Shown here in pieces: positions 2,879 to 59,702 of a stretch of 64,000 nt of DNA. The notes beneath the pieces are model-generated. The model was not told the origin of the DNA. It did no database searches and saw only the letters and a program-made list of their open reading frames with translations. The stretch's first letter is position 1. Each line of letters starts with the position of its first letter. The DNA comes from a phage, in the NCBI GenBank assembly GCA_025677605.1, contig GCA_025677605.1_4110.1. The stretch is one strand, 5' to 3'. A program made the position numbers and the translations under genes.

Positions 2879-2886
2879 TATTTATA
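2879..2886 (-). promoter_or_regulatory. Candidate late promoter (TATAAATA on minus strand) for fibre gene
   Basis: Plus strand TATTTATA about 32 nt upstream of the 2847 start codon. Confidence 0.4.
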
Positions 2887-2887
2887 T

Positions 2888-3196
2888 CTATAGTAAATCA
2901 TTTTCCATATCATCCAATACGGAATCAATAATATTTGCAGCTAACTTTTTAGGCATCTTGAACCATTCAGAGTTAGGTTGCCTTGTTGCATTCATTTGCT
3001 TTAATCTCTTATGCACTTCCTTTTCTGCTGTTCGTGCATCGTCAAACATAACCTGATGGTATACCTCAAAATCCCTGAATGGTGAAGCAGTCTGGTAAAC
3101 ACCTAAACGCTCTTTCATCTCTGATTTTGTAGTGAAGCCTATCTTTACATATTCAGGCCATGCACTATTAGTGATTACATAACATATTTGTGACAT
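2888..3196 (-). CDS. T5orf172 / GIY-YIG-like domain protein (stand-alone, 102 aa)
   Basis: CYVITNSAWPEYVKIGFT...ERL...SPF...EVYHQVMFDDARTAEKEVHKRL...SEWF matches the GIY-YIG-like T5orf172 pattern (IYxxxN, KIGxT, R, E..H, EWF). Confidence 0.6.
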   Translation of the reverse strand: MSQICYVITNSAWPEYVKIGFTTKSEMKERLGVYQTASPFRDFEVYHQVMFDDARTAEKEVHKRLKQMNATRQPNSEWFKMPKKLAANIIDSVLDDMENDLL

Positions 3197-3226
3197 AGAT
3201 ATCTCCTAGTATGGAGATATTTATTA

Positions 3227-3577
3227 TTAACTAATTCTGAAGTTTACACCCGCATCTATCAGGCGTTGAAATGGATTTTGAGGATCAAACTCGGATGGGG
3301 TTTTAGGAGTGTTCAGTACTGGAGCATCAGCATGTAACTTCGACATGCGTTCTTTGTATTTGTCAATATATTCTTCATACAACATGTCTTCTGAATCAGT
3401 ACTCAATATATCTTCTATAAAATGATCAGTACTGTAATCCAGACGATCATCATTGTAATACAACGTCTCCGTAGCCTCATCATAACCCACCAACGTTCCA
3501 TAAGGAACATTGATCTCAATTTTTGAGTACTGACTCTTTAAGTACTCTTCTTTTTTAAAAATGTATACAGTTAACAT
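3227..3577 (-). CDS. Hypothetical acidic protein
   Basis: 116-aa ORF, same strand and tight spacing with neighbours; no recognisable motif. Confidence 0.4.
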   Translation of the reverse strand: MLTVYIFKKEEYLKSQYSKIEINVPYGTLVGYDEATETLYYNDDRLDYSTDHFIEDILSTDSEDMLYEEYIDKYKERMSKLHADAPVLNTPKTPSEFDPQNPFQRLIDAGVNFRIS

Positions 3578-3601
3578 AGTGAAAGCTTCCCTGCTTAGTG
3601 T

Positions 3602-4708
3602 TTATTCAAATGTATTTACAATCTCCAGTACTGTTTCAAGATACTTAGCATCAAAAGTTTCTGTGAATCCTGATGGCAACTCTTCAGTAGTTACTACACC
3701 ACTATCAATGTATTGTTTCAAAAACTTTTCCAGTACTAAGGGTTTATGACCATCTTCAAAGTAACGTTCTACCAGTACAGTGTGTTCAAAATCAGAATGA
3801 CGACTTTGCTCATTTACACGGCGTTTCATATCGCCAGTGATTCCATACTTGTACACTGTCTTATCTTTATTAGTTAGTTTTTGAACATAGAAATATCCAG
3901 GTTTTGATGGCTGATATCCATATTCACCACATGATGGGCATCCTTTACCAGCCATATGTGCTTTTGGTTGTTGGGAGAAAACACCATGAGTTGGACATAC
4001 AATATCAACATAATTCTCGCTTATAGTATATTCAACCAAACTATAATCATACTTATGGTTATGGATAGGTGATACCAGTTCAATGAAACGTTCAGTACTG
4101 CGACCACCTTTACCGGAGCATGTACCACAACCAGTCTTACCAACAAGTAAAGTTTTCGGATCAACTGTCCATTCATGGTTACCCGCTTTACAATACACAG
4201 TTACTTTAGTTTTTTGATTTACATATACTGTGTTAGTTAAATCTAATGAATCACCATAATTTTCTTTTACTTTTTCTACGAATTCTTCAGTACTGTATGC
4301 TTCATTTTTATTACATATAGGACATCCCTTACCAGTAAGAAATTTGTTTGGTGTAATTTCAAAGTAATCGTTATGTTCTTCGTCTGTACAGAGTATTGTT
4401 ACTTTTGTTATAGCGTTAATGTAATTTAGTTTATCAAATTTGAATTTATCTTTTCCAAATTTAGTTTCTACCGTGCTGATAAATTTTTCGTTGTTCGAAC
4501 GCTGTGACATGTTTGAATAACATGAAGAACATGTACATGAAATGTGACGTAGTGCAGGTTTAGTATTTTCTTTTCCGCATTTATTACATTTAACTGTTGT
4601 CTTACTGGCTTTGAATACTAAAGTGCTGAAATCAAATTCACCATATGCTCCATACTTGTTGTTCATCTCTTCAATGAATTTTTCTTTGTCGATACTTACT
4701 TTTGGCAT
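3602..4708 (-). CDS. Zinc-ribbon repeat protein with C-terminal GIY-YIG/T5orf172-like domain (possible homing-endonuclease-like or DNA-binding protein)
   Basis: Repeated units F..G(K)GCP.C (FLTGKGCPICN, LLVGKTGCGTCSGKG, HMAGKGCPSCG) plus CNKCG...CTCSSC; C-terminus GYFYVQKLTNKDKTVYKYGITGDMKRRVNEQSR resembles GIY-YIG/T5orf172; own consensus sigma70 promoter. Confidence 0.5.
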   Translation of the reverse strand: MPKVSIDKEKFIEEMNNKYGAYGEFDFSTLVFKASKTTVKCNKCGKENTKPALRHISCTCSSCYSNMSQRSNNEKFISTVETKFGKDKFKFDKLNYINAITKVTILCTDEEHNDYFEITPNKFLTGKGCPICNKNEAYSTEEFVEKVKENYGDSLDLTNTVYVNQKTKVTVYCKAGNHEWTVDPKTLLVGKTGCGTCSGKGGRSTERFIELVSPIHNHKYDYSLVEYTISENYVDIVCPTHGVFSQQPKAHMAGKGCPSCGEYGYQPSKPGYFYVQKLTNKDKTVYKYGITGDMKRRVNEQSRHSDFEHTVLVERYFEDGHKPLVLEKFLKQYIDSGVVTTEELPSGFTETFDAKYLETVLEIVNTFE

Positions 4709-4743
4709 TTTATTTGTCTCTTTGTGATTTTTGGTATGTGGTA

Positions 4744-4772
4744 ATTATATATAATTAAAATCTACTTGTCAA
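4744..4772 (-). promoter_or_regulatory. Consensus sigma70-type promoter (TTGACA-17-TATAAT) driving gene 3602..4708
   Basis: Minus-strand reading: TTGACA agtagattttaattata TATAAT, about 30 nt upstream of the start codon with AAAGAGA RBS. Confidence 0.6.
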
Positions 4773-6013: not shown

Positions 6014-6059
6014 TATATTATCTCCTTAAAGATGTTATATTCGTTTTTCAGTATGTTAT

Positions 6060-6067
6060 TATTTATG
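6060..6067 (-). promoter_or_regulatory. Candidate late promoter (CATAAATA on minus strand) for capsid gene
   Basis: ccATAAATAata about 47 nt upstream of the start codon; part of an element shared with 8799-8890. Confidence 0.4.
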
Positions 6068-6105
6068 GTACTGAAAAAATTGATTATTAAAATGCTTTAA
6101 AATGT

Positions 6106-7224
6106 TTATTTTTTATTGATACCAGAAAGAACGTCGAGTTCTTTTAGGAATGCCATATCGTCAGCGGTCATTTCTTCGCTTTCAACAATAGCCTGACGGT
6201 TGCCAGTGATTACTTTACCTTCTGCTAGGGTTGTTTTCTTCGCTGAAGGTTGAACTGCTTGACGAGTGGTAGCAGATTCATTTACTTTAGTACCGTTAAG
6301 TACAGACTTATGGTACTTGCTGAAATCTTCTTTAAGCTTTTCTGTTGGAGAAGCAGCTAGAAGGGATTCCATAATTTGTTTTTGTTGACTAGTCAAAGGC
6401 TTAACCAATTCAGACATAATTGCATTGCGTGCCTGTGTATCTTCCATGATACGTAGTTTTGATTGAACTTCTTTAACTGCGTTAACAGATTCATTTAGTT
6501 CTTGTTTAACTTGAGCAATCTCATCTTCTTTAGATTTGATTGATTCAGTCAAAGAACGAAGTAGTGAATTCTCATTAAATTGTTTGGTATTAAATTCTTG
6601 AGCAAATGCTTCAAAGATTTTACGACCGAACATATTTTGTTTAGCTTCAGCAAGATCTTGTTTCAAAGCGTAAAGATTTTTCTGAGTGGTTTCTGCAATA
6701 TATTTAGCAGCACTTTCAGAGGTACGTTTGATAAAGTTATTACGTGCTTCTGCAATTTGACGAGAACCTTCAGCAAGTAGTTTTACACGAGCTTCTACTA
6801 GTTGACGTTTTTCGCTGTGGAATTCTTTTAGTTCTTCAGCTAGGATACCGTTAGAGAAATTAACGAATTTACCGAGGCTTTCTTGAACTAGTTTACGTTC
6901 GTTACGCATTTGTTTAACTTCTTCAGCTAGTACTGAATTAGCGAATTCAGAGAAGTTACCAAGAGTTTTACGGAGGGTAACGCGGTCTTCAACGAGACGT
7001 TTTTTCTCGTCATATACTGCACCCATTTCTTCAGCGATAACTTGAGTAACCATAGTGTTAAGACCTTCTGTTAGTTCAGCTAGGTCTTGTTTATAACGGC
7101 CTTTCATTTCTTCACGCATTTCAGCGGCTAGTGTGTTCTTTTCTTCATTCCATGCTTCCTGAATTAGCTGTTTTGCTTCATCAGAAAGAGATGATTCTTT
7201 TAGAAGCTTTTCTAATTTAGACAT
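6106..7224 (-). CDS. Prohead scaffolding protein (gp22-like)
   Basis: 372 aa, strongly alpha-helical / coiled-coil composition (E,K,L,A,Q-rich), located between protease and capsid genes. Confidence 0.6.
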   Translation of the reverse strand: MSKLEKLLKESSLSDEAKQLIQEAWNEEKNTLAAEMREEMKGRYKQDLAELTEGLNTMVTQVIAEEMGAVYDEKKRLVEDRVTLRKTLGNFSEFANSVLAEEVKQMRNERKLVQESLGKFVNFSNGILAEELKEFHSEKRQLVEARVKLLAEGSRQIAEARNNFIKRTSESAAKYIAETTQKNLYALKQDLAEAKQNMFGRKIFEAFAQEFNTKQFNENSLLRSLTESIKSKEDEIAQVKQELNESVNAVKEVQSKLRIMEDTQARNAIMSELVKPLTSQQKQIMESLLAASPTEKLKEDFSKYHKSVLNGTKVNESATTRQAVQPSAKKTTLAEGKVITGNRQAIVESEEMTADDMAFLKELDVLSGINKK

Positions 7225-7273: not shown

Positions 7274-7281
7274 TATTTATA
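7274..7281 (-). promoter_or_regulatory. Candidate late promoter (TATAAATA on minus strand) for scaffold gene
   Basis: Plus strand TATTTATA about 50 nt upstream of the 7224 start codon. Confidence 0.45.
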
Positions 7282-7292: not shown

Positions 7293-7913
7293 TTAACCTT
7301 TTAATTTCTTGAAAAAATCATAAATTTCAGAATCTAGTTTATTTACTGATTTAGATTCTGCGATTTTTTTAGGTCCATTGCAAGGTGAGCCGTACTTACT
7401 CATCAAAGACTCAAATACCGCTGTTGGGTACGCTTCGGGAGCACTAGGTTGAGCAACAATATCAATTGTGATAATTTCGAAATCAGAAACTATTCCATTA
7501 TAATCAACGTTACCGGAACCACGAGAACTTACACCAAGTTTTACACCTGCTTCGAGCATTTTACGAATATTTTGACCATGTGCAGTATCAAGTAATTTGA
7601 TTTCTGCCATCCCATTAGAACCTTCCATCCAGACTTTAGTAATCATTGCTGCTACACGGTCAAGGTTAATAGTCAAAGTTTCAGGGTGGTCACATTCTAC
7701 TAGAATGCTTTCGCCTTTAGCCAAACGTTGAGCCATATTATTAACAGCTTTAGCAATTTCGGCTAAAGGGTAAATTCTTTCGTTCAAATTACGCTGGTCA
7801 GCTTGAATTGCGATACCACGAAGATAGCAATCGCGACCTCCCAGCCCATTATCACGATGTTCCATAACAATTTGTGAATCATTGAATGAAGACCATTCAC
7901 GAATCATACTCAT
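7293..7913 (-). CDS. Prohead core protease (gp21-like)
   Basis: 206 aa (T4 gp21 is ~212 aa); position between portal/core proteins and scaffold; segment CYLRGIAIQADQRNLNERIYP resembles the gp21 family. Confidence 0.65.
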   Translation of the reverse strand: MSMIREWSSFNDSQIVMEHRDNGLGGRDCYLRGIAIQADQRNLNERIYPLAEIAKAVNNMAQRLAKGESILVECDHPETLTINLDRVAAMITKVWMEGSNGMAEIKLLDTAHGQNIRKMLEAGVKLGVSSRGSGNVDYNGIVSDFEIITIDIVAQPSAPEAYPTAVFESLMSKYGSPCNGPKKIAESKSVNKLDSEIYDFFKKLKG

Positions 7914-7943
7914 AATGATCTCCTTTCTTTGTTTTATTTATTA

Positions 7944-8798
7944 TTAGAATTTTGGTTGTGATTTTGGTAGTGGGGAACGAGACTTAGAAGAACCAGTGGT
8001 TACTTTCTTAACGTCTTTCATTACGCCTTTGCCGCTATCCATAACATTATTCATATCTTCTGGTACGGTGTGAGATTCAGTATCTACGCCATCAAATTTG
8101 TCATCAACTACTGGAGTTGAGTTTTTAGCGATTTTTACTGGAGCTACGCCTTGTACTGGAGATTTAGCTTGGGAAGCAACTGGGGATTTAGTATTTGCAC
8201 CAGCTTTTTCTTTCTTATCAACATCAGCAACTGCTTTTAGTTTGAAAGACTCACCAACTTTTTCATCACCGAATTGAACATCAGCGAAATCATCACCGCC
8301 GTCTTCGGAACCAACTTCTAGATCAACTTCTTCTTCGCCACCTACTGGTTCTTCAGCGTCTAGGTCAACTTCACCTTCGCCGGAGATTTCATCAAACATT
8401 TGTTGTAGGCCACGGAAAGCATCTTGAATGGAAGCCCATTGGTCTTCGGAAGGGACTTCTTCACCTTCTGCACCAACTTCACCTTCAGAATCTTCTTCAC
8501 CAGCTTGGAATTCGATATCATCTTCAGCACTCTTGTCTTCTTCACCAAGAGAATATTCGATTTGACTATTAAGACCAGCATCTGGGGAAACGTCGAAGTC
8601 TTCTTCTAGTTTCTCTTCTTTGTCGTCTTCATCGCAGCATTCTTCGTCGTCCATGCTTTCTTCTAGTTCTTTGTTAATTTCTTGTGCTTGTTCAACAAAG
8701 TACTTACGCATTTTTTTATCAGCTACATCTTGCTCGCCGTTAGCAAAAGCTTCGATTGCTTCTTGTAGTAGTTTTAAATTAGCCATTATATCCTCCAA
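7944..8798 (-). CDS. Highly acidic prohead core / internal head protein
   Basis: 284 aa with long D/E-rich tracts (EEDSEGEVGAEGEEVPSEDQ...), in the head-core gene position. Confidence 0.4.
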   Translation of the reverse strand: MEDIMANLKLLQEAIEAFANGEQDVADKKMRKYFVEQAQEINKELEESMDDEECCDEDDKEEKLEEDFDVSPDAGLNSQIEYSLGEEDKSAEDDIEFQAGEEDSEGEVGAEGEEVPSEDQWASIQDAFRGLQQMFDEISGEGEVDLDAEEPVGGEEEVDLEVGSEDGGDDFADVQFGDEKVGESFKLKAVADVDKKEKAGANTKSPVASQAKSPVQGVAPVKIAKNSTPVVDDKFDGVDTESHTVPEDMNNVMDSGKGVMKDVKKVTTGSSKSRSPLPKSQPKF

Positions 8799-8890
8799 AG
8801 ATATATTTAATTCCTATAAAGTATGATATTATTTAGTACTGAAAAAATTCGTCATTTTTAAAAGCGTTAAAAAGAGCGATTTTTAAGGTA

Positions 8891-9136
8891 TTACATCATT
8901 CCGGCATTAGCATCAGGTGCTGGTGCTGGAGCATAAACAACAGCGACTACATTATTTCTACGCTGTTCTTCATTTGCTTTAAATTCTCTGTACTTACGCA
9001 GATTGTTAAGTACTTGCAATGTGAGTTTGGGTTTTCTAGAATCCGTAATTTTATATACGGTCTGATCATCTTCAGGGTCGTACATAGAATCAGAATTCGA
9101 TTCAAAGATATCCTTTAACATGCTATCTCCTTGCAT
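8891..9136 (-). CDS. Small prohead core protein (gp67-like by size and position)
   Basis: 81 aa ORF between portal and core genes; positional inference only. Confidence 0.3.
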   Translation of the reverse strand: MQGDSMLKDIFESNSDSMYDPEDDQTVYKITDSRKPKLTLQVLNNLRKYREFKANEEQRRNNVVAVVYAPAPAPDANAGMM

Positions 9137-9191
9137 TAATATGAAGGGAATTTTTTACGTTCCCTTCATTTATATACATTGTTATTTATTA

Positions 9192-10919
9192 TTAAAAAGA
9201 TTCACCTAAATTATTAGGGTCAAAAGAGCCATTTCCTTGCTGATTTTGGTATTCAGCGTCAGCACTTTCCAGATTACCATCTGCATCTAATCCTAGGTCC
9301 ATACCTGGGTCATTAGGAGAGTCGATACCAACTGACTGTAATCCAGCAACATCTTCTTGTTGTGGTGCATTAGAATCTTGTGGATTCTCTTGTAACCATA
9401 GCTGTTCATTTTTAACAATATCTTTCTGGGAGAAGCCCATTTTTTCAAGGATAGTTTGTTTCGCCATATATGGTAATTCATTAAGTGGCATATATGTATT
9501 AATGAGTTTCGCATCCAATTCTGCTTTACGATAAGAAGCCAAGTTAATTGGTGGATTCATAATAACTTCAAAAGAAGAAGTACTAATGTTATATCCATTT
9601 TTTACCATAAAACGCTTAAATTCAGCATCGAAAATTTTTGCAACTAGACGCTGATAACGCATACATTGGTTATTAAAACGTAATTCACTTGCCATTGCTT
9701 GAGTTGCACCATCACCAAATAGTGATACGCCGCCGTCATCTGGACCTTGTGGAAGGTAAGATGCTGGGATTTGTAAGCCACGAATTAGTTTATTATTAAA
9801 ATATCTCAAGTCATCAATCTGACCTAAGTTATCACCACCAGGTAGTGTTTGAACATCTGAACCACGACCTTCGGAAGTTTGTGGGAAGAAATAGTCTTCC
9901 AATATACTTAGTGGGTTGTATGCTGCATCCATCAATGAAGTACTGCCACCTTTATTAGAAGGTATACGTCTTTGATGGATTTCATTTTTAAAGCGTTCAA
10001 CATATGCCATTGCTTGGTGAGTTTGCATATCACCAACATCAATTTTGAATACACGGCGTTCTGGTGCACGTTGTACACGATAGATAATAATACTATCTTC
10101 AAGAAGTTCTTTTTGTTTGTAGACTTTAAAGACATCTTCTAGTATACTTGTACCGAAAGGCCAAACTCCATCTTGTCCTGTATTTAGTGACAGATGAATT
10201 ACGTGTTCTGCACCAACTGGTATAATATCCATACGACCATTTGTATTAAATGGATCGGAACTATTACCTTGGTTGGTAAAACCAGATGCACCACCTGCGG
10301 CAACTTGACCACCACCACCTAGTGTGTTCGGTATTGCCCCTGGATATGAAGCTTTATCAAAACCAATTTGAAGGTTACTAAAAACTTTATCTTTAAGGTT
10401 AAGAGATACATCTCTTATATAGTATATTACTGGTGTTTTTCCGGTTGCTTCGTTAACAAAAACCTGTTCGACATTTTTTGGGTTAACCCAATACCAGTCG
10501 AATGTTTCTGGGTCACGAATAAAGAACTGGTCACCGTACTTAAGTAGTCCGCGAACAATTTCATACATTCTTGTTTTGAAATCATTCTGTTCAGTCCATG
10601 CATCTAAGCGGTCTTCAATAGTGGTTACTTCCGTATCACCAATATTATCTTTATATTTAATTTTATATGGTAGACCAAAATCTTCAGTACTCTGTGTACA
10701 AAAGTCAGCAATAATGTTTAGTGCCGTTCTGATTTCTGGGTCTTGATCCATCTGGTCGTATTGACTGTAACGGTCAGTACGGTTTGCCAATCCGTTATAA
10801 ACCACCGGAAGGTAGGAAGCAAAATTAGTTTTGCTCCCAGTGGATTTATTACTATTGGATTGCTGGGGTACGATCGATAATTTTGATCTTCCCATAGTCA
10901 TGTGACGTTTCCAACTCAT
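9192..10919 (-). CDS. Portal protein (gp20-like)
   Basis: IYRVQRAPERRVFKIDVGDM matches the gp20 segment [20 protein letters not shown] (from memory); 575 aa; canonical position upstream of core and protease. Confidence 0.8.
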   Translation of the reverse strand: MSWKRHMTMGRSKLSIVPQQSNSNKSTGSKTNFASYLPVVYNGLANRTDRYSQYDQMDQDPEIRTALNIIADFCTQSTEDFGLPYKIKYKDNIGDTEVTTIEDRLDAWTEQNDFKTRMYEIVRGLLKYGDQFFIRDPETFDWYWVNPKNVEQVFVNEATGKTPVIYYIRDVSLNLKDKVFSNLQIGFDKASYPGAIPNTLGGGGQVAAGGASGFTNQGNSSDPFNTNGRMDIIPVGAEHVIHLSLNTGQDGVWPFGTSILEDVFKVYKQKELLEDSIIIYRVQRAPERRVFKIDVGDMQTHQAMAYVERFKNEIHQRRIPSNKGGSTSLMDAAYNPLSILEDYFFPQTSEGRGSDVQTLPGGDNLGQIDDLRYFNNKLIRGLQIPASYLPQGPDDGGVSLFGDGATQAMASELRFNNQCMRYQRLVAKIFDAEFKRFMVKNGYNISTSSFEVIMNPPINLASYRKAELDAKLINTYMPLNELPYMAKQTILEKMGFSQKDIVKNEQLWLQENPQDSNAPQQEDVAGLQSVGIDSPNDPGMDLGLDADGNLESADAEYQNQQGNGSFDPNNLGESF

Positions 10920-10934: not shown

Positions 10935-13106
10935 TTAACTATTGCGTTCACCTTGTGTATTTTCAGAAATTGTTCTTAAGTAATTATTTGTCTGATTTGT
11001 TGCTGCGAGTGATTGTTCACTCATTTCTGCTAGACGTTTAAAAATTTCTTTGATCTCTTCTGAACTCATGTCATTATTTATAGTTCCGTTTTGTGGCGTT
11101 ACCAGAGATTTTATATCACGATCTGGTTCTGGTGGGAATGGTGCTTCACCAGGTTTCCATGCGGATTTATCATAATGTTTACGAGTTAATTCCATCATAG
11201 GTGGTGTATTTGGCATTACTGTAGTCTGGACGTTTTTAGGTGGTTCATAGCCCAAGACTCGATATGCATTATCTACGTTAAATGGTCTAGGTGGTGTATA
11301 TAATTTAGAAGATTTCCATTTTTGGAAGTCAAGTGTTTTTTCTTCTACAAATTTTGTGAAATCGTCTACTGAATTACCAATAGAATCCCAGAAAGATGTA
11401 GCTTTCTCTTCTATTTTCTTTTTAGGTTCTTCTTGTTTTTCAGATTTATCATCTGAACCAAACCATCCTTTTACTTTATCCCATAACTTTCCAGGTAAAT
11501 CCATGAGATTCTTCATGAAGTCATCGAATGCTTTTGAAACTTGAGTGTATGTATCACCAAATATATCTGCACCTAATCCTTCAAGCCACAATACAAATTC
11601 ATTACCGACACGATCAACATAAGCAACTGCATCCTTGAATATTGGAACTAACCCAAATCCATCTTTAGCCAATTCCCAAATAAATCCCCATGCACTATCG
11701 GTACGATCTGCAATTGCTGTCAAATAATCAACAACATTATTTTGAACATCAGCATACATTTTATTGAATGGAGCAACAAATTCAGTACTGACCCATCTGT
11801 TCAATCTATCAGTAAATTCTGCGATTTTATCTGCTGGTCGATTTTTGTCAGCATTAATTGCAGCTTCCATATCTAACATTTGCTTAGCAAATGCGGCAGC
11901 GGTGAAGTTTTGACTTCGTTGCATATCTTCCATATCTTTTTCAACGCGTTTTCTGTTTTTCTTCACCCACTGATATTGTGCTTCACGTATAGCTTTTGCA
12001 TCGGTTACACCAGACTTAACCATGTTCTCACCAAGGTCAGCGAATTCGCTAATCATTGGAGATAATAAATCATCAGGAACACCACCAATTGATATTCTGT
12101 GGCTAATCAATCTTAGGAAATCAGTACCCATATCCCCCATACCACCTGCCGCTTCGGTAAGTGCTTTAGTGGTTAATGTTGCGGTTTCTTCTGATAGTCC
12201 CACCCAGTTGTTTAGTGTAGTTTTTAGTATTCTTGCATCAAATGATTTATCAAGTGATTGTGTCTTTTTAAGTAATTCATCAATTGACATACCCATTGTC
12301 TTACTAAAAGTAGACATAGTTTTAATTAACTCTTGGGTACTTTGTGCTTGGTTTATATTCCTTACTAGTTCTGCACCACCAAATTGTTTTTGAATTTTGA
12401 TGTTACGTGCTGCTAAATCTGATAAAGTTTTTTGTGACATACCATATAGGCCAAGTTTATCTTGGGCATTTTGAACTACACCTAACAATTTACCAAATTC
12501 CTTAACGCCATCTCCATACGAACCATCCAATTGTGCAATAACATCACTATGAGTTGATATTACTTCACTGAATAGATCCATAGACATTAACGCTGAACCT
12601 GAACCTTTTAGCAAAGAGCCATAACCTTCAGCAAGAGAAACACCCGCACTGTTGACTCTGTTGTACATTTCAAGCTGGGCGTTCATTACGTTATATACTG
12701 CCATCCCTACATCAGCAACCATTTTAAATGCTGATGCTGCCATTCCTACAGGACCGGGAATCATAGAAAGAGAGCCAGCTACGGATGATGCACTCATACC
12801 CATTGAGTTAATGACAGTACTGACATTCGCTGAAGTACTCATCATTGTTTTACCAACGTTTGTCATTTCGCTGGACATTGCTCTGAACATTTTACCCATA
12901 GAGGATGAATTACCACGAGAACCGCGTCCACCACCACTTGGTCCAGGTGAATCGCCAGGTGATGGGTTACCACCACCATTATTTTTCTTTTTATCATTCT
13001 TTAAACTTTCTGCTAACAATTCACGTATAGCTGAAAGACCATCTACGGTATCATTAGATTTATTCACTATCTGTTGTAGTAAGTAATCACTGTTGTTTAC
13101 AGCCAT
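10935..13106 (-). CDS. Gly/Ser/Met-rich virion protein (tape-measure-like or ejection protein?)
   Basis: 723 aa; N-terminal GGGNPSPGDSPGPSGGGRGSRG then Met/Ala/Ser-rich helical segments; ends 16 nt before the portal start. Confidence 0.35.
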   Translation of the reverse strand: MAVNNSDYLLQQIVNKSNDTVDGLSAIRELLAESLKNDKKKNNGGGNPSPGDSPGPSGGGRGSRGNSSSMGKMFRAMSSEMTNVGKTMMSTSANVSTVINSMGMSASSVAGSLSMIPGPVGMAASAFKMVADVGMAVYNVMNAQLEMYNRVNSAGVSLAEGYGSLLKGSGSALMSMDLFSEVISTHSDVIAQLDGSYGDGVKEFGKLLGVVQNAQDKLGLYGMSQKTLSDLAARNIKIQKQFGGAELVRNINQAQSTQELIKTMSTFSKTMGMSIDELLKKTQSLDKSFDARILKTTLNNWVGLSEETATLTTKALTEAAGGMGDMGTDFLRLISHRISIGGVPDDLLSPMISEFADLGENMVKSGVTDAKAIREAQYQWVKKNRKRVEKDMEDMQRSQNFTAAAFAKQMLDMEAAINADKNRPADKIAEFTDRLNRWVSTEFVAPFNKMYADVQNNVVDYLTAIADRTDSAWGFIWELAKDGFGLVPIFKDAVAYVDRVGNEFVLWLEGLGADIFGDTYTQVSKAFDDFMKNLMDLPGKLWDKVKGWFGSDDKSEKQEEPKKKIEEKATSFWDSIGNSVDDFTKFVEEKTLDFQKWKSSKLYTPPRPFNVDNAYRVLGYEPPKNVQTTVMPNTPPMMELTRKHYDKSAWKPGEAPFPPEPDRDIKSLVTPQNGTINNDMSSEEIKEIFKRLAEMSEQSLAATNQTNNYLRTISENTQGERNS

Positions 13107-13138: not shown

Positions 13139-13146
13139 TATTTATG
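13139..13146 (-). promoter_or_regulatory. Candidate late promoter (CATAAATA on minus strand) for the 723-aa/portal operon
   Basis: ttCATAAATAttcc about 33 nt upstream of the 13106 start. Confidence 0.4.
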
Positions 13147-13756: not shown

Positions 13757-13761
13757 AATTA

Positions 13762-20330: not shown

Positions 20331-20333
20331 ACC

Positions 20334-48828: not shown

Positions 48829-48836
48829 TATTTATT
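48829..48836 (-). promoter_or_regulatory. Candidate late promoter (AATAAATA on minus strand) for operon 48796->46573
   Basis: Plus strand TATTTATT about 33 nt upstream of the 48796 start. Confidence 0.35.
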
Positions 48837-48862
48837 ATTGGTCTTCGTTGCTGCATTGAACA

Positions 48863-48870
48863 GATAAATA
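48863..48870 (+). promoter_or_regulatory. Candidate late promoter (GATAAATA) for collagen-like gene
   Basis: About 36 nt upstream of ATG 48906; divergent from the preceding promoter. Confidence 0.35.
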
Positions 48871-53187: not shown

Positions 53188-53195
53188 AATAAATA
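53188..53195 (+). promoter_or_regulatory. Candidate late promoter (AATAAATA) for the 1847-aa fibre gene
   Basis: About 58 nt upstream of ATG 53253. Confidence 0.35.
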
Positions 53196-53252: not shown

Positions 53253-56200
53253 ATGTACTCGATAAAAACAGATCTAGCAGTAACTGGTAATACTAATGTT
53301 GGTAAAGAATTATCAGTTAAAGGTAATGCGGTCTTCGATAAAAACGTAACCATTAAGGGGACCGTTAGTTTCGCTGATGCTACCTTCACTGCAATTACAG
53401 TAGATCAAGCAACAATCAACACAACACTCGATGTTACAGGCAAAGCGTCACTTAAGGGTGGAATGGATGTACTTGGCAATACAGTTATTGGTAATACTAC
53501 TGCTGGTTCCGATACAGCAACTATTAATTCCAATGCTACTTTTAATGGCACTTCTACTTTTGCCAAAGATATTACACAAACATCAGGAAAAGCAATTTTT
53601 CAAGATACCACCACTTCTGCATTAGAAGTTAATGGTACAACAACATTAAATGGTAACCTCACTGCTGCGGCAGCAACCACTGCAAGCTTTGATAAATTAA
53701 CTGCTAATGAAGCAACCATTGCAACTGTATCAGCAACTGATATTACTGCAACTGGTGCAACCGTTGAGAATCTAACTGTAACTGGTAAATTAGATGGTGA
53801 TTTCACATTAGGGGATGTTAATACCGATAATTTAGTTGTTGAAAAACTATCTACATTAAAAGGTGCTGTAACCCTAGAATCAAACATCATTGGTACTAAT
53901 ACTGTAGCAAACCTAAAAGCTGTATCTTTGGGTTCTAATGCAGCGGATTCGACTGCACGCCTAGGCTTTGCATATACTGCTCCTGGTTTACGCCCAACTG
54001 TAATTCTACAAAACGAAGTACAGTCCGAGCTAATGACACCAGCAAATCTAACAGTACTTAAAACTGCTACATTTGGTGATGTATCAGCAGCAACCAATGG
54101 TATTACCGCAAAAGGTTTGAACCTATTTGATTACCTAACACTTTCTGGTAACTCAATACAAGATCCAACCACACCAATTCTACGTGTAACTAAAGGTAAA
54201 ACACAATTAACTGACCTACAAGTTGATGGAACTACTAATATTACTGGTAAAACTACTGTTGGTGATTTGGATATTACTGGAACACTATCAGGTAACTTTG
54301 TACTAAGTGATATTACTGCGGATAATTTAGTTGTTGAAAAACTAACTACACTAAAAGGTGCATTAAACCTAGAATCTAATATTGTTGGTTCAACTGCGAA
54401 TGCTAATTTAAAATCTGTCACTTTAGGTGGAAACGTAGCAGACACGAATGCTAAAGTTAACTTTACATATACTGCTCCTGGTTTACGTCCAACTGTAATT
54501 CTACAAAACGAAGTACAGTCCGAATTAATGACCCCAGCAAATCTAACAGTGCTGAAAACTGCTACATTTGGTGATGTATCTGCATCTACCTACGGTATTA
54601 CAGCAAAAGGTTTGAACCTATTTGATTATTTGAAAATAACTGGTAATGCGGTACAAGATCCAAATACATTAACTCTAGATGTGGATGGTAAGGCTCAATT
54701 CAAAGACGTTAATTTCACTGGTACAGTTACTGGTTTTGTTCCTGACATTTCTGGTCAAGATATTACACCTAAAGATGTAACTGCTTCTGGTAATATTAGT
54801 GGTGTTAATCTAGATGCTTCTGGTACACTAACAGTTGATGGGGATTCCGTTCTAAAAGGCACAACTATAACTGATTTGACTGTTACTGGAACTACAACTG
54901 GTATTACACTAGCTGGTCAAGACATTACTCCTAAAGATGTAACTGCATCTGGTAATGTTAAAGGTGTTGACGTAACTGCATCTGGAAACCTAACAGTTGA
55001 CGGTACTACCACATTGGTTGGTAACACGGTAGTTGATGGTTTATTTGAAGTTGTTGGTCAAACAACCACTGTTAAAGATTTGAACGTTACTGGTACACTA
55101 TCTGGTGCTGCAATTAAAGCAAACGTTGATGGTCTAGACATTCTACCTAATTCTGTAACCACAACTGAAGAAGTTGCAGTGGGGACTAATCTAAGTGTTG
55201 GTGGAAACGCACTCTTTAGTGGCTTGAAAGTTGAAGTTACTGGTAAAGTTACTGGTGTTGGTTCTGATGCATTAGAAACTGGTTCAATTGAATCTGACGG
55301 TACTATCACTGCCCCAAATATCACAGCAACTACTAAAGTGACCGCAGCTTCCGCACAAATTACCGGAACCGGAACTGGTCTAAGTGTAGATCATAATGCA
55401 TCAGTTGGTGGTGATTTAAATGTTACTGGAACTTTAACGGCTGGTGTTATTGACCTAAGTGCGGCTGATGTAACTGTTAAAACACTTGATGTATCTGAAA
55501 GTGCACATGTAGGTGGAAACCTAACTGTTGATGGTACTGTAGATTTAAGTGCAGCAGATGTAAGTGTTAAATCTTTAACTAGTGCTGGTCCTGTGATTAG
55601 TAATGATGCTACTGGAACTAACATTCTACCAAAATTACAAAGTACTGATATTACTACAACTAACAGTACAACTGGTACAGCAACAGTAACTACAGCAAAC
55701 ATTTCTACATTAAATGTTACTGGTGAAAGTACATTGGCTGCTGTTTCTGCTGTTTCTGTAACTACTCCTTCTATTGTTAATACCGATGGTATTAATTTAG
55801 AAAATGATACAGTTGCACATGGTGACCTAACTGTTAAAGGTACATTTACACCTGAAGGTGGATTAGATTTAAGCCCAGTTGATATCAGTTCTAAATCATT
55901 AACAACAACTGAAGGTGCAACCATTGGTGGAAGCTTAACTGTTGATGGTGCAATTAATGCTGCTGCGGCAGATCTAACTGTTAAATCACTAACTTCTTCT
56001 GGTGTTATTACTGTTACTGAAAATACTGAACCAAGTATTCTACCAAAACTAACAAGTACTGAAGCAACCGCTGGTAAATTGAATGTTACTGGTGATGCAA
56101 CAGTCGGTGGTAAAGCGACCGTTTCTGGTGCACTTGAAGTTACTGGTGCTTCAACATTTGGTAACGCAGTAACTGTAAACGTCGGTGGTATTACTGCTAA

Positions 56201-58796
56201 AGGTGGCTTGACTGTTGCTTCTGGAAACTTGAAAGTTGCTGCTGCGGCAGTGGTTGATGGTTCAGTAAGTGCTGGTTCATACACAAGTGCTGGAGATAAA
56301 ATAACACTAGCTAAACCAACAGATGTTACTGGTGATTTGCACGTTGAAGGTGCTTTCACTGCAACTTCCGTTGATTTTAGTACAACTGATTTAACTGTTA
56401 AATCACTACAAGTTGATAATGACGTTACTATCGATGGTAACTTGACTATCACAAATGCTGATTTGGAAACTAACTCATTAGCAAGTACTACAAGTACTAC
56501 TGTTGGTACTGACCTAATTCTAACTACTGGTACAATTACTGGTGCTCCAACAATTTCTGGTGCAACTACACTAAGTTCAACCCTACATACTGTAGGTGCT
56601 GCAACTTTTGATGGTACTGTTGATGTTGGTGGTAAAATTACTTCTAAATCAATCCAAGTAAGTGCTACTGGTGTTGGTGTAGCTGTTGATAATGATGCAA
56701 CTGTTGGTGGTTATTTGACAATTGGTGAAACATTAGGTGTTACTGGACTAAGTACTCTGTCTGGTGGGGTTGATGCAGGTTCTGCATTAATCAAAACTAC
56801 TGGTGAAGTTCAATCAGCAACTCTACAAACTTCTGGTAAAGCAACACTAGCAAGTGTTGATGTTTCAGGTGATGCAGTTGTTACTGGTGACCTAACTGTT
56901 AAAGGTGCATTTACACCTGAAGGTAGCCTAAACTTAGGTTCTGCTGTTCTAAACGTTGAAGGTGTTGATGCAAGTGCTAACTTAACTGCACTCGGTTCTG
57001 TAACTGCTGGTACTACACTAACTGTTACTGGTGTTTCAACTCTAAATGGTGGTACTAACACTACTACTCTTTCAACAAGTGGTAAAGCTACATTAAGTAG
57101 TGCGGAAGTTACTGGTGCTCTAAGTGCTGGTGGTGCTTTGGCTGTTACTGGTACTACAAATCTAACTGGAAAACTAACCGCTGGTGAAGCTGCTCTCAGT
57201 TCACTAACAGTTTCTGGTGATGTTACCATTAATGGAACACTAAACCCTGGAACATTGGATCTATCTACTACTCCAGTTGATGCGAAAAGCTTGAAATCTA
57301 GAGAAACACTAGAAGTTACTGGTCTAAGCACTCTAACTGGTGGTTTGGCTGTTAGTGCAAATACCGCAATCACTGCTGCTGGTGACATTACTGGTACTAC
57401 AATTACCACAACTGGTAAAGGTACATTTGGTAGTGCAGCGGTAACTACTGGTTTGACTGTTGGTGGTGCTTTGGTTGTTAATGGTGCATCCGTGAACATC
57501 TCTGATGCTTCTACTGTGACTATGCCTAAAGCTGATATTTCTGCGAAAGGTATTATCATCGGTCCTAAAGTTAGTTCAAGACCGGAAACTATCCAATTTG
57601 TTGGTGATACTTATATTGGTAGTAACCTATTTGTTGCTGGTAATATTAACGGTTCAGTAGATTTGGCTGGTCAGGATATTTCCCTGAACTCATTAACTTC
57701 TAATACCACAATTCACGCAGTTGAGGATATTACTACTGATGAAGATATGCACGCACGTGCTGCAACATTCGGTGCACAAGGTTCAACAGCTAACAGCCTA
57801 ACTGTTAATGGTAACGCAGTAACTACTGGCGACTTTACTGTTAGTGGTAAGATTATTGGTACACTGGACCAATCTGCAAGTGCAGTCGAAGTTAAATCTC
57901 TAACTTCTACAACCTTTATCGCTGCTGGTACAACCCTAACAGTTGGTTCAACAATCACTGCTGAAGGTTTGAGTACTTTGAAAGGTGGTATTGCAACTAA
58001 TGGTGCTACAATCAACGCTGGTGATGGTGCAATCACTACAACTGGTGATGTGTCTGGTGCAAACGTTAGTGCGTCTGGTGCAGTAACTACTGCAACTATT
58101 ACAACTTCTGGCCTAGCAACTATGGCAAGTGCTAAGATTAACACTACTCTAGCAGTTACTGGTGCAACTACACTATCTGATGTTGTTACTATCGGTAAGA
58201 AACTAACTGTTAGTACTGGTGGTATCGAAATCACTGCGGGTGGCTTCAATGTAGTTGCGGGTGGTGCAGCAATTACTGGTGCTACTAACCTTAAAGGTGC
58301 TGTAACACTAGGTTCTGCGTCTGCTGATGCAATCACAGTTACTGGTACATCTTCATTTGCTGAAAATGCAACATTTGCTAAAGATGTGACTATTGAAGGC
58401 ACACTACATACAGATATTGCTGATTTAGTAACTGAAAGTGTAACTACTAAAAAGTATGCTGTTACACCTGCTGCTAAAGTACAGGCATCTGTTGCTGCTC
58501 CAAGTGAAGGAACATGGTCACCTGATGGTGAGTCTAATGTGTACTATATTACACTAGACCAAGCATCAACTACACTAGGTCCAATTAACGGATTGATTGG
58601 AAGTGGTAAGGCTGGTTCTTACTATATCTACGTACAACAAGATGCAACTGGTGGACGTGAACTTATCACTGATGGTACTTATGCAGTAGTAGGTGGTGAG
58701 ATTAACAAAACACAAAATACAGTTAGTATCATTCAGTTGATTTATGATGGATACAGCCCAGTAGTAGATATGTTTATTGCACAACGTACTGCTTAA
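53253..58796 (+). CDS. Giant repetitive fibre protein (1847 aa)
   Basis: Extreme Thr/Val/Gly/Ala/Asn composition with recurring units (..LTVDGT..LSAADV.VKSLT..); internal tandem duplications; GGAGGG RBS. Confidence 0.6.
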   Translation: MYSIKTDLAVTGNTNVGKELSVKGNAVFDKNVTIKGTVSFADATFTAITVDQATINTTLDVTGKASLKGGMDVLGNTVIGNTTAGSDTATINSNATFNGTSTFAKDITQTSGKAIFQDTTTSALEVNGTTTLNGNLTAAAATTASFDKLTANEATIATVSATDITATGATVENLTVTGKLDGDFTLGDVNTDNLVVEKLSTLKGAVTLESNIIGTNTVANLKAVSLGSNAADSTARLGFAYTAPGLRPTVILQNEVQSELMTPANLTVLKTATFGDVSAATNGITAKGLNLFDYLTLSGNSIQDPTTPILRVTKGKTQLTDLQVDGTTNITGKTTVGDLDITGTLSGNFVLSDITADNLVVEKLTTLKGALNLESNIVGSTANANLKSVTLGGNVADTNAKVNFTYTAPGLRPTVILQNEVQSELMTPANLTVLKTATFGDVSASTYGITAKGLNLFDYLKITGNAVQDPNTLTLDVDGKAQFKDVNFTGTVTGFVPDISGQDITPKDVTASGNISGVNLDASGTLTVDGDSVLKGTTITDLTVTGTTTGITLAGQDITPKDVTASGNVKGVDVTASGNLTVDGTTTLVGNTVVDGLFEVVGQTTTVKDLNVTGTLSGAAIKANVDGLDILPNSVTTTEEVAVGTNLSVGGNALFSGLKVEVTGKVTGVGSDALETGSIESDGTITAPNITATTKVTAASAQITGTGTGLSVDHNASVGGDLNVTGTLTAGVIDLSAADVTVKTLDVSESAHVGGNLTVDGTVDLSAADVSVKSLTSAGPVISNDATGTNILPKLQSTDITTTNSTTGTATVTTANISTLNVTGESTLAAVSAVSVTTPSIVNTDGINLENDTVAHGDLTVKGTFTPEGGLDLSPVDISSKSLTTTEGATIGGSLTVDGAINAAAADLTVKSLTSSGVITVTENTEPSILPKLTSTEATAGKLNVTGDATVGGKATVSGALEVTGASTFGNAVTVNVGGITAKGGLTVASGNLKVAAAAVVDGSVSAGSYTSAGDKITLAKPTDVTGDLHVEGAFTATSVDFSTTDLTVKSLQVDNDVTIDGNLTITNADLETNSLASTTSTTVGTDLILTTGTITGAPTISGATTLSSTLHTVGAATFDGTVDVGGKITSKSIQVSATGVGVAVDNDATVGGYLTIGETLGVTGLSTLSGGVDAGSALIKTTGEVQSATLQTSGKATLASVDVSGDAVVTGDLTVKGAFTPEGSLNLGSAVLNVEGVDASANLTALGSVTAGTTLTVTGVSTLNGGTNTTTLSTSGKATLSSAEVTGALSAGGALAVTGTTNLTGKLTAGEAALSSLTVSGDVTINGTLNPGTLDLSTTPVDAKSLKSRETLEVTGLSTLTGGLAVSANTAITAAGDITGTTITTTGKGTFGSAAVTTGLTVGGALVVNGASVNISDASTVTMPKADISAKGIIIGPKVSSRPETIQFVGDTYIGSNLFVAGNINGSVDLAGQDISLNSLTSNTTIHAVEDITTDEDMHARAATFGAQGSTANSLTVNGNAVTTGDFTVSGKIIGTLDQSASAVEVKSLTSTTFIAAGTTLTVGSTITAEGLSTLKGGIATNGATINAGDGAITTTGDVSGANVSASGAVTTATITTSGLATMASAKINTTLAVTGATTLSDVVTIGKKLTVSTGGIEITAGGFNVVAGGAAITGATNLKGAVTLGSASADAITVTGTSSFAENATFAKDVTIEGTLHTDIADLVTESVTTKKYAVTPAAKVQASVAAPSEGTWSPDGESNVYYITLDQASTTLGPINGLIGSGKAGSYYIYVQQDATGGRELITDGTYAVVGGEINKTQNTVSIIQLIYDGYSPVVDMFIAQRTA
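53790..54670 (+). repeat. Tandem ~390-bp duplication inside the fibre gene (units ~53790-54180 and ~54290-54670)
   Basis: ~90% nucleotide identity between e.g. 53983-54160 and 54473-54650 (TAPGLRPTVILQNEVQSELMTPANLTVLKTATFGDVSA in both). Confidence 0.7.
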
Positions 58797-58804
58797 TATA
58801 AATG

Positions 58805-58830
58805 GTGCGGGGTTTTCCCCGCACTGTATT
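58805..58830 (+). terminator. Hairpin after fibre gene
   Basis: GTGCGGGG-TTTT-CCCCGCAC perfect 8-bp stem; weak T-tract. Confidence 0.4.
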
Positions 58831-58862
58831 GTAAATAATTTAATTTTAAATGAGGAAATATT

Positions 58863-59651
58863 ATGGCTCAATTTACATATGTGAGTGGTAGTTCAGCGGC
58901 AGATTACAAACTAGGTAAAATAATTTCTAATCCTAGAGGTGTTAAAGGTCAATCACGTAGTCCACAACCACCCAATGATCCTAGTGGTGAGTATTTTTAT
59001 ACATACGACGATGTTCGTCCATTCTATGGTATTAAACTAAATCCAAATGCAGAAATACCAAAAGCTGCTGATGAAATTCGCAAGAGAGAAGGCTTCTGGT
59101 GGTTAGAATATGTATCTGTTGGCGATAGAAATTCAAAGGGTGAATACCTTGAATATCGCAAAATTGAAGGTGATGCAGTAGTTACATTTAACGAAACCGA
59201 AGTAGCACCATATGCAGCATTAACCGCAGTAAAAACACAAACCTACATTGATATGGATTTGGCTGATGTTAAAGCTGATTTGAAGCAAAGAACCGCATAT
59301 GAACGAGATAATTTAATTAATAGTGGTTATCATTATAAAAATGCTGACGGAACAGTTGATGTAACATTCCCTAGTGATGTTAATGGTCGTCAGATGTTAA
59401 ACAACTATTATACACAAGCGATTAATGGTTCCCAAACTATTAATATCTATCTAGATAGTGGTGAGATTGTAACAGTTGATGGTGATGAGATGGTTGAAAT
59501 TTTCAATGGTCTATTGGCACAAATCGACGGATACTTTAATGACGCAATTGCACAACAAACTGCAATTGATGCAGCAACTACCATTTTTGATGCACAAAAA
59601 GCAGCAACTTTTGTATATCCAGATCAATCTAAGATCCCAGTACGTAATTAA
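58863..59651 (+). CDS. Hypothetical protein (possible fibre accessory)
   Basis: 262-aa ORF with RBS (GAGGAAA); shares DPSGEYFYTYDD-type motif with the 43217 protein. Confidence 0.35.
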   Translation: MAQFTYVSGSSAADYKLGKIISNPRGVKGQSRSPQPPNDPSGEYFYTYDDVRPFYGIKLNPNAEIPKAADEIRKREGFWWLEYVSVGDRNSKGEYLEYRKIEGDAVVTFNETEVAPYAALTAVKTQTYIDMDLADVKADLKQRTAYERDNLINSGYHYKNADGTVDVTFPSDVNGRQMLNNYYTQAINGSQTINIYLDSGEIVTVDGDEMVEIFNGLLAQIDGYFNDAIAQQTAIDAATTIFDAQKAATFVYPDQSKIPVRN

Positions 59652-59660
59652 TAAACACTA

Positions 59661-59690
59661 AGGTCAACTATGGTTGGCCTTTTCTTTTTC
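59661..59690 (+). terminator. Rho-independent terminator
   Basis: AGGTCAAC-tatg-GTTGGCCT (one G-U pair) + TTTTCTTTTTCTT. Confidence 0.5.
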
Positions 59691-59694
59691 TTAA

Positions 59695-59702
59695 AATAAA
59701 TA
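59695..59702 (+). promoter_or_regulatory. Candidate late promoter (AATAAATA) for fibre gene 59733
   Basis: About 31 nt upstream of the start codon. Confidence 0.35.

Follow-up and report, generated by a model that had tools for sequence, protein, structure and literature searches.

Which signals direct transcription of the virion genes in a 64,000-nucleotide (nt) stretch of phage DNA (contig GCA_025677605.1_4110.1 of assembly GCA_025677605.1, at its full length referred to as the window) is a question raised by a short element, (N)ATAAATA, that recurs in front of these genes. A preliminary description of the window had proposed that the element marks a common class of late promoters preceding virion genes and that sigma70-like promoters precede three other genes. 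The first proposal is borne out by the placement statistics, the footprinting, the genome-wide distribution, and the presence of a homologue of the T4 late sigma factor gp55, and we consider it very probable that a Rak2-like jumbo phage uses the (N)ATAAATA elements as its late promoters and that a T4-like late sigma factor reads them.

The best megablast match of the window was Escherichia phage A4 (ON286972.1), which aligned with 99.3% identity on the reverse strand at ~157.2 to 221.2 kb. Phage A4 belongs to the genus Asteriusvirus, and thus to the Rak2-like jumbo myoviruses, which are distantly related to T4. The remaining Asteriusvirus genomes matched with 78 to 84% identity, and weaker matches were obtained with jumbo phages of Klebsiella, Salmonella, Erwinia, Yersinia, Cronobacter, Pectobacterium, and Xanthomonas. 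The gene map of the window was taken from the A4 annotation. It places the head genes (portal, protease, scaffold, capsid) on the minus strand up to ~13.7 kb; from 20.4 kb on, the plus strand encodes the baseplate, tail, and fibre proteins, and between these two regions lies a minus-strand block with gp46-like and gp47-like genes and a gene annotated as "sigma factor for late transcription". For genome-wide counts, the complete A4 genome of 355.5 kb was assembled.

Counted on both strands, ATAAATA occurs 20 times in the window, compared to 32 occurrences expected from dinucleotide shuffles. Raw over-representation was therefore dropped as a test, and with an element that is under-represented overall, the informative statistics are its placement and its avoidance of coding sequences (CDS). 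Eighteen of the 20 sites lie wholly within the non-coding 4.7% of the window (binomial probability, 2.5e-22), one further site overlaps a stop codon, and the remaining one, at position 11075, is CDS-internal. All 19 sites that are not CDS-internal are co-oriented with the next gene, whose start is located 15 to 61 nt downstream and in one case 111 nt downstream. The preliminary description had named an upstream excess over the A+T-rich background as the point to check, and such an excess was found: in the 80 nt upstream of all 45 genes ATAAATA was the top-ranked 7-mer when compared with the whole window (18 of 20 copies; hypergeometric probability, 3.8e-27), and Shine-Dalgarno words ranked below it.

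Within CDS, ATAAATA was present once in the sense orientation (9.2 copies expected from codon shuffles) and never in the antisense orientation (18.2 expected). The total of 1 copy thus compares to 27.4 expected copies, and the lowest of 300 codon shuffles still contained 13. Among the 21 permutations of the same base composition, ATAAATA was the rarest one inside CDS. Its removal from the antisense strand as well points to a signal that acts at the level of DNA and is sensitive to orientation. The variants with T, C, or G in front of TAAATA were also rare in the window (6, 3, and 7 copies), and about one-third to one-half of them were intergenic and co-oriented, so that TAAATA is the selected and working core of the element. 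Genes lacking ATAAATA are located less than ~35 nt from the upstream gene and are presumably co-transcribed with it.

All 13 sites that the preliminary description had listed in front of virion genes were present, with 30 to 57 nt between the end of the motif and the annotated ATG. They comprise exact TATAAATA at 20334(+), 7274(-), and 2879(-), CATAAATA at 6060(-), 13139(-), 15684(+), and 13742(+), and A/G-ATAAATA at 26241, 27212, 48863, 48829(-), 53188, and 59695. A single coordinate had to be shifted by 1 nt, as the 8-mer given at 13743 starts at 13742. Not in that list were the intergenic, co-oriented sites at 689(-), 3218(-), 7935(-), 9183(-), 26258(+), and 30780(+) and the CDS-internal site at 11075(-).

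The 355.5-kb A4 genome contains only 55 ATAAATA sites. The regions with small genes of early type (0 to 90 and 320 to 355 kb; 125 kb) have 3 of them, and most of the others are found at 140 to 275 kb, the structural and replication region. According to a tally made by hand against the annotation tables, the distance to the next co-oriented annotated CDS downstream is at most 65 nt for 37 of the 55 sites and at most 165 nt for 46; 28 of these 37 sites precede annotated virion genes. Expressed per gene, a well-placed site is present at 27 distinct virion genes out of ~70, but at only 9 of ~520 other genes. Even A4_168 and A4_464/466, which are isolated minus-strand structural genes within plus-strand early regions, have one ATAAATA site each.

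The candidate reader of the element is encoded within the window on the minus strand (19411 to 20250). The 279-amino-acid (aa) product consists of a T4-gp55-like domain (residues ~124 to 262) and, ahead of it, an N-terminal extension of ~120 aa. The protein matched PHROG 12791 (1e-151), residues 125 to 262 matched the late sigma transcription factor family phrog_234 (T4-type family; 3e-17), and in BLASTP residues 124 to 248 aligned with residues 7 to 134 of T4 gp55 at 24% identity (E value, 2e-4), including the NP.(A/S)Y.T motif. An AlphaFold (AF2) model built from 32 homologues (pLDDT, 87; pTM, 0.77) was compared with known structures using Foldseek; the top PDB match was 7D7C chain F (7d7c_F), which is gp55 in the open complex of T4 gp55 with RNA polymerase (probability, 1.00; target TM, 0.56; 2.9 Å over 98 columns), and no other match was prominent. 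The gene order gp46-gp47-gp55 is that of T4 genes 46-47-55. Based on these similarities, the protein is predicted to be a gp55-like late sigma factor. Its N-terminal extension is conserved and confidently folded in the model, and the first ~120 to 150 residues (three helices and a small sheet) gave no structural match.

Several observations weigh against a T4-like reading of the element. The assignment of the gp55-like protein is one of remote homology: no match was found in Pfam, NCBIfam, or PDB sequences, and the Foldseek E value of the model was only 0.019. In T4, late transcription depends on gp33 as a co-activator and on the clamp gp45, which contacts the hydrophobic C-terminal tails of gp55 and gp33 (PMC7892883). 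In phmmer searches with the T4 proteins, a weak method by which T4 gp55 itself reached an E value of only 0.86, none of gp45, gp33, and gp62 was detected at E ≤0.1; a homologue of the clamp loader protein gp44 was found (8e-24). Divergent homologues of the three others may have escaped these single-sequence searches. Ten candidate open reading frames (ORFs) near the clamp loader and replication genes matched uncharacterised PHROGs only and no clamp PHROG, and a clamp-binding tail of the SLDFL type was not found in the gp55-like protein, which ends with ...ERKNDDGTI. In the searchable literature, neither mapped 5′ ends of transcripts nor data on their timing were found for the window phage or any Asteriusvirus. 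Finally, the element mostly precedes virion genes, as had been proposed, but it is also found before the non-virion genes for endonuclease VII and a T5orf172 protein. Because gp33, gp45, and the clamp-binding tail were not detected, the activation mechanism of T4 cannot simply be transferred to this phage: promoter and sigma factor are T4-like, and the activation mechanism is possibly different. According to a weaker reading, late transcription may proceed with a gp55-type sigma factor without the gp33/gp45 clamp activator, the N-terminal extension serving as a substitute. For the sister phage CBB, gp33 and gp45 were likewise reported as not found (PMC5259590).

An alignment of 19 sites on the motif revealed the anatomy of the element. 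The preceding base shows no conservation (A9 C5 G2 T3); its counterpart in T4 is the T at position -13. A conserved -35 region is lacking, with at most 0.2 bit at positions -25 to -11 relative to the motif; a weak T-tract is present 8 to 10 nt upstream, and A and T dominate the 15 nt that follow. At the sixth base past the motif, 15 of the 19 sites have a purine, 12 of them an A. As the T4 box extends from -13 to -6 (PMC2988020), this base occupies the position of the T4 late transcription start, and in 12 sites it is surrounded by a (C/G/T)ATA(T/C) patch. Many sites are preceded at a distance of 10 to 20 nt by a G+C-rich hairpin with a T-run (13196-13164; ahead of 27213, 30780, 53189, 58831, and 59696), which suggests modules composed of terminator, promoter, leader, and gene. 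One-mismatch cores were present in three more gaps (CTAAATA at 8830 for A4_7, GTAAATA at 43192 for A4_578, and GTAAATA at 58831 for A4_568).

The same arrangement was observed in relatives. A scan of IMG/VR anchored on the capsid protein yielded 80 loci (64 to 92% identity), and in the 39 loci longer than 12 kb, which were analyzed, nearly every ATAAATA is intergenic, with most copies within 80 nt of the start of a co-oriented ORF. In footprinting alignments the motif is the one block conserved ahead of the genes for the hub, the tail fibre, A4_4, and A4_7. At the hub gene, more than 30 relatives retain it while every flanking base varies. The motif is missing in distant relatives in which the capsid or protease gene is operon-internal.

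Among the minus-strand sites, the one with the weakest placement (689 to 695) is intergenic and co-oriented with the tail-fibre chaperone gene (80 to 577, or 80 to 640 with a TTG start), from which it is separated by 111 nt to the ATG or 48 nt to the TTG. The tail fibre gene (1237 to 2847) has the TATAAATA version, with the core at 2879 to 2885, 31 nt from its ATG; TAAATA is kept in 10 relatives with differing flanks. In front of the T5orf172/GIY-YIG-like gene (2888 to 3196) the core is located at 3218 to 3224, 21 nt from the ATG, and relatives contain GATAAATA or CTAAATA. The scaffold gene (6106 to 7224) is again preceded by TATAAATA (core at 7274 to 7280, 49 nt from the ATG), and the prohead protease gene (7293 to 7913) by a core at 7935 to 7941 (21 nt from the ATG) that is kept in the two closest relatives. 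The cores of the small gene A4_6 (8891 to 9121) and the structural gene A4_4 (10935 to 13106) are found at 9183 to 9189, 61 nt from the ATG, and at 13139 to 13145, right after the terminator hairpin 13196-13164; the latter is kept in relatives. The sole CDS-internal site, TATAAATA at 11075 to 11081(-), is located 155 nt upstream of the portal gene (9192 to 10919) and, judged by its position, may serve this gene as a promoter lying inside the 3′ end of the structural gene before it. In seven relatives CTAAATA is embedded ~105 nt upstream of the portal gene, despite the purging of the motif from CDS.

On the plus strand, the core of the baseplate hub gene (13780 to 14649) at 13743 to 13749 is retained in relatives down to 25 to 30% protein identity, and that of the endonuclease VII gene (15724 to 16215) at 15685 to 15691 is replaced in relatives by G/C/T-TAAATA at the same place. 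The TATAAATA core of the structural gene A4_587 (20375 to 21106) at 20335 to 20341 is separated by 3 nt from the -35 heptamer belonging to the divergent promoter of gp55. Tandem ATAAATA cores (26242 to 26248 and 26258 to 26264) precede the gp5-like hub/lysozyme gene (26280 to 26768). The baseplate wedge gene (27277 to 30741; core at 27213 to 27219) and the gene for a structural protein of 3,325 aa (30823 to 40800; core at 30780 to 30786) each have their core after a terminator-like hairpin. The variant GTAAATA is probably the late promoter of the structural gene A4_578 (43229 to 44725; variant at 43192 to 43198) and, after a terminator hairpin, of A4_568 (58863 to 59651; variant at 58831 to 58837). 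Two divergent late promoters stand back to back at 48829 to 48870, one for A4_573 (48829 to 48835, minus strand) and one for A4_572 (48864 to 48870, plus strand). The proximal subunit gene of the long tail fibre (53253 to 58796) and a structural gene at 59733 to 61706 have their cores at 53189 to 53195 and 59696 to 59702, respectively.

Two head promoters on the minus strand share more than the core. In the promoter of the capsid (MCP) gene (6050 to 6081) the core ATAAATA at 6060 to 6066 is part of the composite AATTTTTTCAGTACC-ATAAATA-ATAACATACT. A second copy, with the variant CTAAATA at 8830 to 8836, forms the late promoter (8820 to 8849) of A4_7 (7944 to 8786), the gene of a very acidic head protein (77 D+E of 280 aa), and the orthologous sites in 8 relatives read (A/T)ATAAATAATGACATAC. 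The joint form, AATTTTTTCAGTAC(C/T)-(A)TAAATAAT(A/T)(A/T)CATACT (6081-6050 and 8849-8820, respectively), has no further copy in the 355-kb A4 genome. The preliminary description had noted a longer element shared by the capsid and acidic genes and had suggested a common 5′ untranslated region (5′-UTR) or activator site. The element does exist at both genes, but if transcription starts ~6 nt beyond the core, as predicted, its T-tract and CAGTAC belong to the promoter region upstream and CATAC spans the start itself; it therefore consists mostly of promoter DNA upstream of or at the predicted start and is not a 5′-UTR. In relatives, both genes have kept the T-tract and TAAATA-A-N3-4-CATAC, and most are without CAGTAC. 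What is conserved resembles an extended consensus of the two strongest promoters of head genes.

That the composite is, beyond such a consensus, a dedicated activator or repressor site for the genes of the two most abundant head proteins appears doubtful, although it deserves some weight. Its restriction to two genes of A4 would fit this idea, as would the inverted repeat that brackets the capsid promoter and the AGTAC(T) that abuts the -10 element here as it does in early promoters of the phage. However, CAGTAC was lost from most orthologous promoters, in which the T-tract and (A)CATAC persist, and as CAGTAC is part of a genome-wide AGTACT excess, its two occurrences are less special. The inverted repeat, TTTTTCAGTA...TACTGAAAAA, places the capsid promoter in the loop of a 10-base-pair (bp) stem (z = -4.4). 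All nine close relatives can form a comparable stem from other arm sequences (TTTTTCAG/CTGAAAAA, TTTTCTGT/ACAGAAAA, and TTTGT/ACAAA; the changes are also given as CAG/CTG and CTGT/ACAG), and these co-changing arms are suggestive of a conserved stem, which may act as a hairpin in read-through RNA or as a site for a protein. The capsid stem is nevertheless short and A/U-rich, its two or three compensatory positions are thin evidence, and the stem at A4_7 has only 4 bp. A hairpin around every late promoter was also considered and dropped, as only that of the capsid gene and, weakly, those at 3218 and 13139 beat shuffled sequences.

The excess of AGTACT, often present as CAGTACTG or TTCAGTACT, is a feature of its own. 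It is by far the most over-represented hexamer (z = 42; about nine-fold), with 111 sites in the window. The A4 genome contains 922 sites, compared to 101 expected from a first-order and 360 from a third-order model; 772 were counted in CDS, compared to 127 in codon shuffles, and the sites are mostly in genes and on both strands. Only the enterobacterial-type Rak2-like clade shows this excess. At 22 sites, 19 of which are intergenic, AGTACT abuts the -10 hexamer of early promoters (AGTACTgTATAAT). The word TTCAGTAC was dropped as a promoter or leader motif since it is a fragment of the AGTACT/CAGTACTG excess and occurs mostly inside genes and on both strands. Our guess is that AGTACT serves as the binding site of a phage protein or as a modification target. 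Many other 6-bp palindromes (among them CTGCAG, CAGCTG, CCATGG, CGTACG, AGGCCT, and AGCGCT) are completely absent from A4 despite 40 to 65 expected copies, which indicates extreme avoidance of restriction sites.

Promoters with sigma70-type signals form a distinct group. In the first 20 kb, 70 sigma70-like hexamer pairs were counted compared to 79 expected; a sigma70 scan was therefore dropped as stand-alone evidence in this A+T-rich DNA, and only well-placed intergenic sites were considered. The three -35/-10 sites of the preliminary description are all real, with a correction of 1 nt for the one given at 43161-43188, which should read 43160-43187. They carry sigma70-type signals, but they represent two classes instead of a single near-consensus one. 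The canonical class comprises the perfect promoter TTGACA-17-TATAAT (12/12) at 4744 to 4772 on the minus strand, which follows the capsid terminator (4815-4796) and is located 35 nt before A4_11 (3602 to 4708). In PHROG and other searches the A4_11 protein matched endonuclease/HNH/T5orf172 and zinc-finger families; its gene sits between the capsid and tail fibre genes (2888 to 4772) and is absent at this position in relatives. Most likely, A4_11 is a mobile homing-endonuclease cassette with a host-type promoter; the T5orf172 gene next to it is the one with a late promoter core at 3218 to 3224. A further sigma70-like site, TTGACA-17-(TG)AATAAT at 13758 to 13786(-) in front of A4_3 (13214 to 13702), had been missed before.

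The second class, here called middle, consists of a heptamer, a spacer of exactly 13 bp, and an extended -10 element. It includes the promoters of the gp55 gene (TGGGACA-N13-TGcTATAAT, 20303 to 20331; as hexamers, GGGACA-16-TGcTATAAT) and of clpA (GTAGACA-N13-TGaTATAAT, 43160 to 43188; as hexamers, TAGACA-16-TGaTATAAT), the promoter TGGGACA-N13-TGaTATAAT at 45 to 73, which reads out of the window towards the DNA polymerase operon, and the orphan promoter TGAGACA-N13-TGcTATAAT at 15600 to 15628, all on the minus strand. The A4 genome has ~18 intergenic fits to (T/C)G(G/A)GACA-N13-TG(A/C)TATAAT, mostly before genes of replication or nucleotide metabolism, including those for SSB, primase, exonuclease, DNA polymerase, and a Nudix protein; the gene of a ClpP-like protease has the GTAGACA variant of clpA. 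The class follows the layout of Promoter 1 of CBB: spacing and extended -10 element are identical, and the heptamer is TG(G/A)GACA or GTAGACA here. Likewise, the gp55 promoter is laid out as CBB Porf_244 (TGGAACG-N13-TGGTATAAT). At two places a late core begins 3 nt past the -35 heptamer of a divergent middle promoter, namely, at the gp55/A4_587 pair (TGTCCCA-CCT-ATAAATA, 20325 to 20341) and at the clpA/A4_578 pair (TGTCTAC-CTA-GTAAATA, 43181 to 43198), and the geometry of both pairs is the same. As two polymerase complexes would overlap there, a middle-to-late switch by mutual exclusion is possible.

In the mechanism that we propose, the gp55-like sigma factor (19411 to 20250) would associate with the host core RNA polymerase, and this holoenzyme would recognise a single -10-like element, TAAATA at about -11 to -6, without a -35 element. 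The polymerase would melt the A+T-rich DNA directly downstream and start ~6 nt past the motif, usually with A, giving leaders of 10 to 50 nt with a strong Shine-Dalgarno site. A typical transcription unit would thus consist of a terminator hairpin, NATAAATA, the leader, and a gene or operon. The middle class, TG(G/A)GACA-N13-TGnTATAAT, would drive clpA and the gene of the sigma factor itself, together with the DNA polymerase operon and a non-coding RNA of the orphan type, and is probably read by host sigma70 via the extended -10 element or by a sigma70-family protein of the phage; the inserted homing-endonuclease gene would use an ordinary consensus sigma70 promoter.

It seems improbable that ATAAATA is instead read by a different sigma factor, either by host sigma70 as a TATAAT-like, -10-only promoter or by the homologue of the phage sigma70-family protein A4_181. 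Such proteins are available, as the phage encodes one of 320 aa and a shorter one, ATAAAT is one substitution away from TATAAT-like hexamers, and neither gp33 nor gp45 was found by phmmer or in the PHROG scans of the ten ORFs. However, the sigma70-type signals (TATAAT, extended -10, and -35 heptamer) are already the property of a distinct class, the ATAAATA sites have neither a -35 region nor the TG, and 7 of the 8 positions of the T4 gp55 element agree with the motif, in a phage with a gp55 homologue in T4-like synteny. Hardly credible at all is an element of the leader RNA (a translational enhancer, RNase site, or stability determinant) or a mere by-product of A+T-rich intergenic DNA: ATAAATA is indeed always found between a terminator or stop codon and the Shine-Dalgarno site, and the intergenic DNA is A+T-rich, but the purging from CDS is as strong in antisense as in sense orientation (0 versus 18 expected), the spacing to the Shine-Dalgarno site ranges between 15 and 61 nt, 7-mers with the same bases in another order are common, and the motif ranks first among the enriched words even when the background is A+T-rich and is kept where its flanks diverged.

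The orphan middle promoter stands in a gap of 895 nt (14829 to 15723) that contains no ORF, tRNA, tmRNA, or Rfam match. The ~0.5-kb block behind it (promoter and block together, 15040 to 15628, minus strand) is conserved at 65 to 90% in 72 phage GenBank records, mostly without annotation and at ~4 places per genome. With nhmmer exactly four ORF-free paralogues were found in A4 (~65.2, 125.8, 205.6, and 321.0 kb; E values of 1e-116 to 1e-132), each behind a middle promoter; besides the window copy these are located at 65156 to 65652, 125748 to 126349, and 320988 to 321459 of ON286972.1. Eleven sequences of the family fit a structure of 95 pairs, 96.3% of which are paired, with compensatory double changes at 53 pairs. 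None of 500 shuffles reached the observed measures, and slid controls showed 41 to 47% pairing and 10 to 15 such pairs. The 20-base core pattern was present in only 26 IMG/VR stretches, nearly all on Rak2-like contigs of ~350 to 378 kb, and the family is found only in the enterobacterial-type Rak2-like jumbo phages. No nhmmer match to ncRNA001/002 of phage PA5oct was obtained, and a literature search on AGTACT or non-coding RNAs in Rak2-like phages returned nothing relevant. From its sequence features, we lean towards the view that the orphan promoter (15628-15600) drives a structured RNA of ~0.5 kb and no protein gene, maybe representing an undescribed class of large phage non-coding RNAs. 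That it acts as a large regulatory or sponge RNA, or by analogy to ColE1 RNA II or T4 oriF/oriG as a structured origin primer, is only an idea.

The closest known system is that of T4. There, too, the late promoter is a single -10-like box of 8 bp, TATAAATA, without -35 conservation, with A+T-rich DNA downstream, and used on both strands; it precedes virion genes and the endonuclease VII gene (T4 gene 49), position -13 is variable, and gp55 is encoded next to gp46 and gp47. The T4 TATA box spans -13 to -6, with -13 as the most variable position (PMC2988020). In contrast to T4, in which -13 is T in 32 of 50 sites, this position is degenerate here and C/G-TAAATA is used, and the gp55-like protein has the ~120-aa N-terminal extension and no clamp-binding tail, with gp44-like protein present and gp33 and gp45 not detectable. 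In the T4-related phages KVP40, 44RR, S-PM2, and Aeh1 the late consensus derived in silico is closely similar, with variation concentrated at -13/-12; gp33, gp45, and a gp55 with its hydrophobic C-terminal motif are all retained there (PMC2988020) but apparently not in the window phage.

Closer relatives have been described before. In CBB, a search of the regions upstream of structural genes yielded predicted late promoters with ATAAATA and an A/T-rich downstream region at 35 sites, including CTAAATA (PMC5259590, Buttimer et al. 2017). That study likewise sorts the promoters into RpoD-like, divergent RpoD-like, and late ones, and the motif is also stated for GAP32 (PMC5259590; Abbasifar et al. 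2014 cited there). CBB Promoter 1, TGAAACG-N13-TGGTATAAT, also stands ahead of the CBB gp55-like gene (Table S6, PMC5259590). The window phage differs as a member of Asteriusvirus and by its middle heptamer TG(G/A)GACA in place of the TGAAACG of CBB. A genome paper on Asteriusvirus from 2025 does not discuss promoters, and all motifs reported in the transcriptome paper on PA5oct are of the sigma70 type. The ATAAATA late signal is thus already published for the sister phages CBB and GAP32, and the result is expected. Our additions are the statistics of CDS purging, the clade-wide footprinting, the TAAATA core, the start purine, the separation of two sigma70-like classes, the structural support for the gp55 assignment, and the failure to find the clamp-related components; the first two do not appear in the accessible passages of the CBB paper.

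With the promoters described here, transcription units can be reliably delimited and late genes called in a genome of 355 kb, most genes of which are unannotated. They show that the logic of T4 late promoters reaches into a distant clade of jumbo phages, and the purging of TAAATA illustrates how strongly a promoter of 6 to 7 bp constrains a whole genome. The apparent lack of gp33, gp45, and the clamp-binding tail makes these phages a natural test of gp55-type transcription without a clamp activator.

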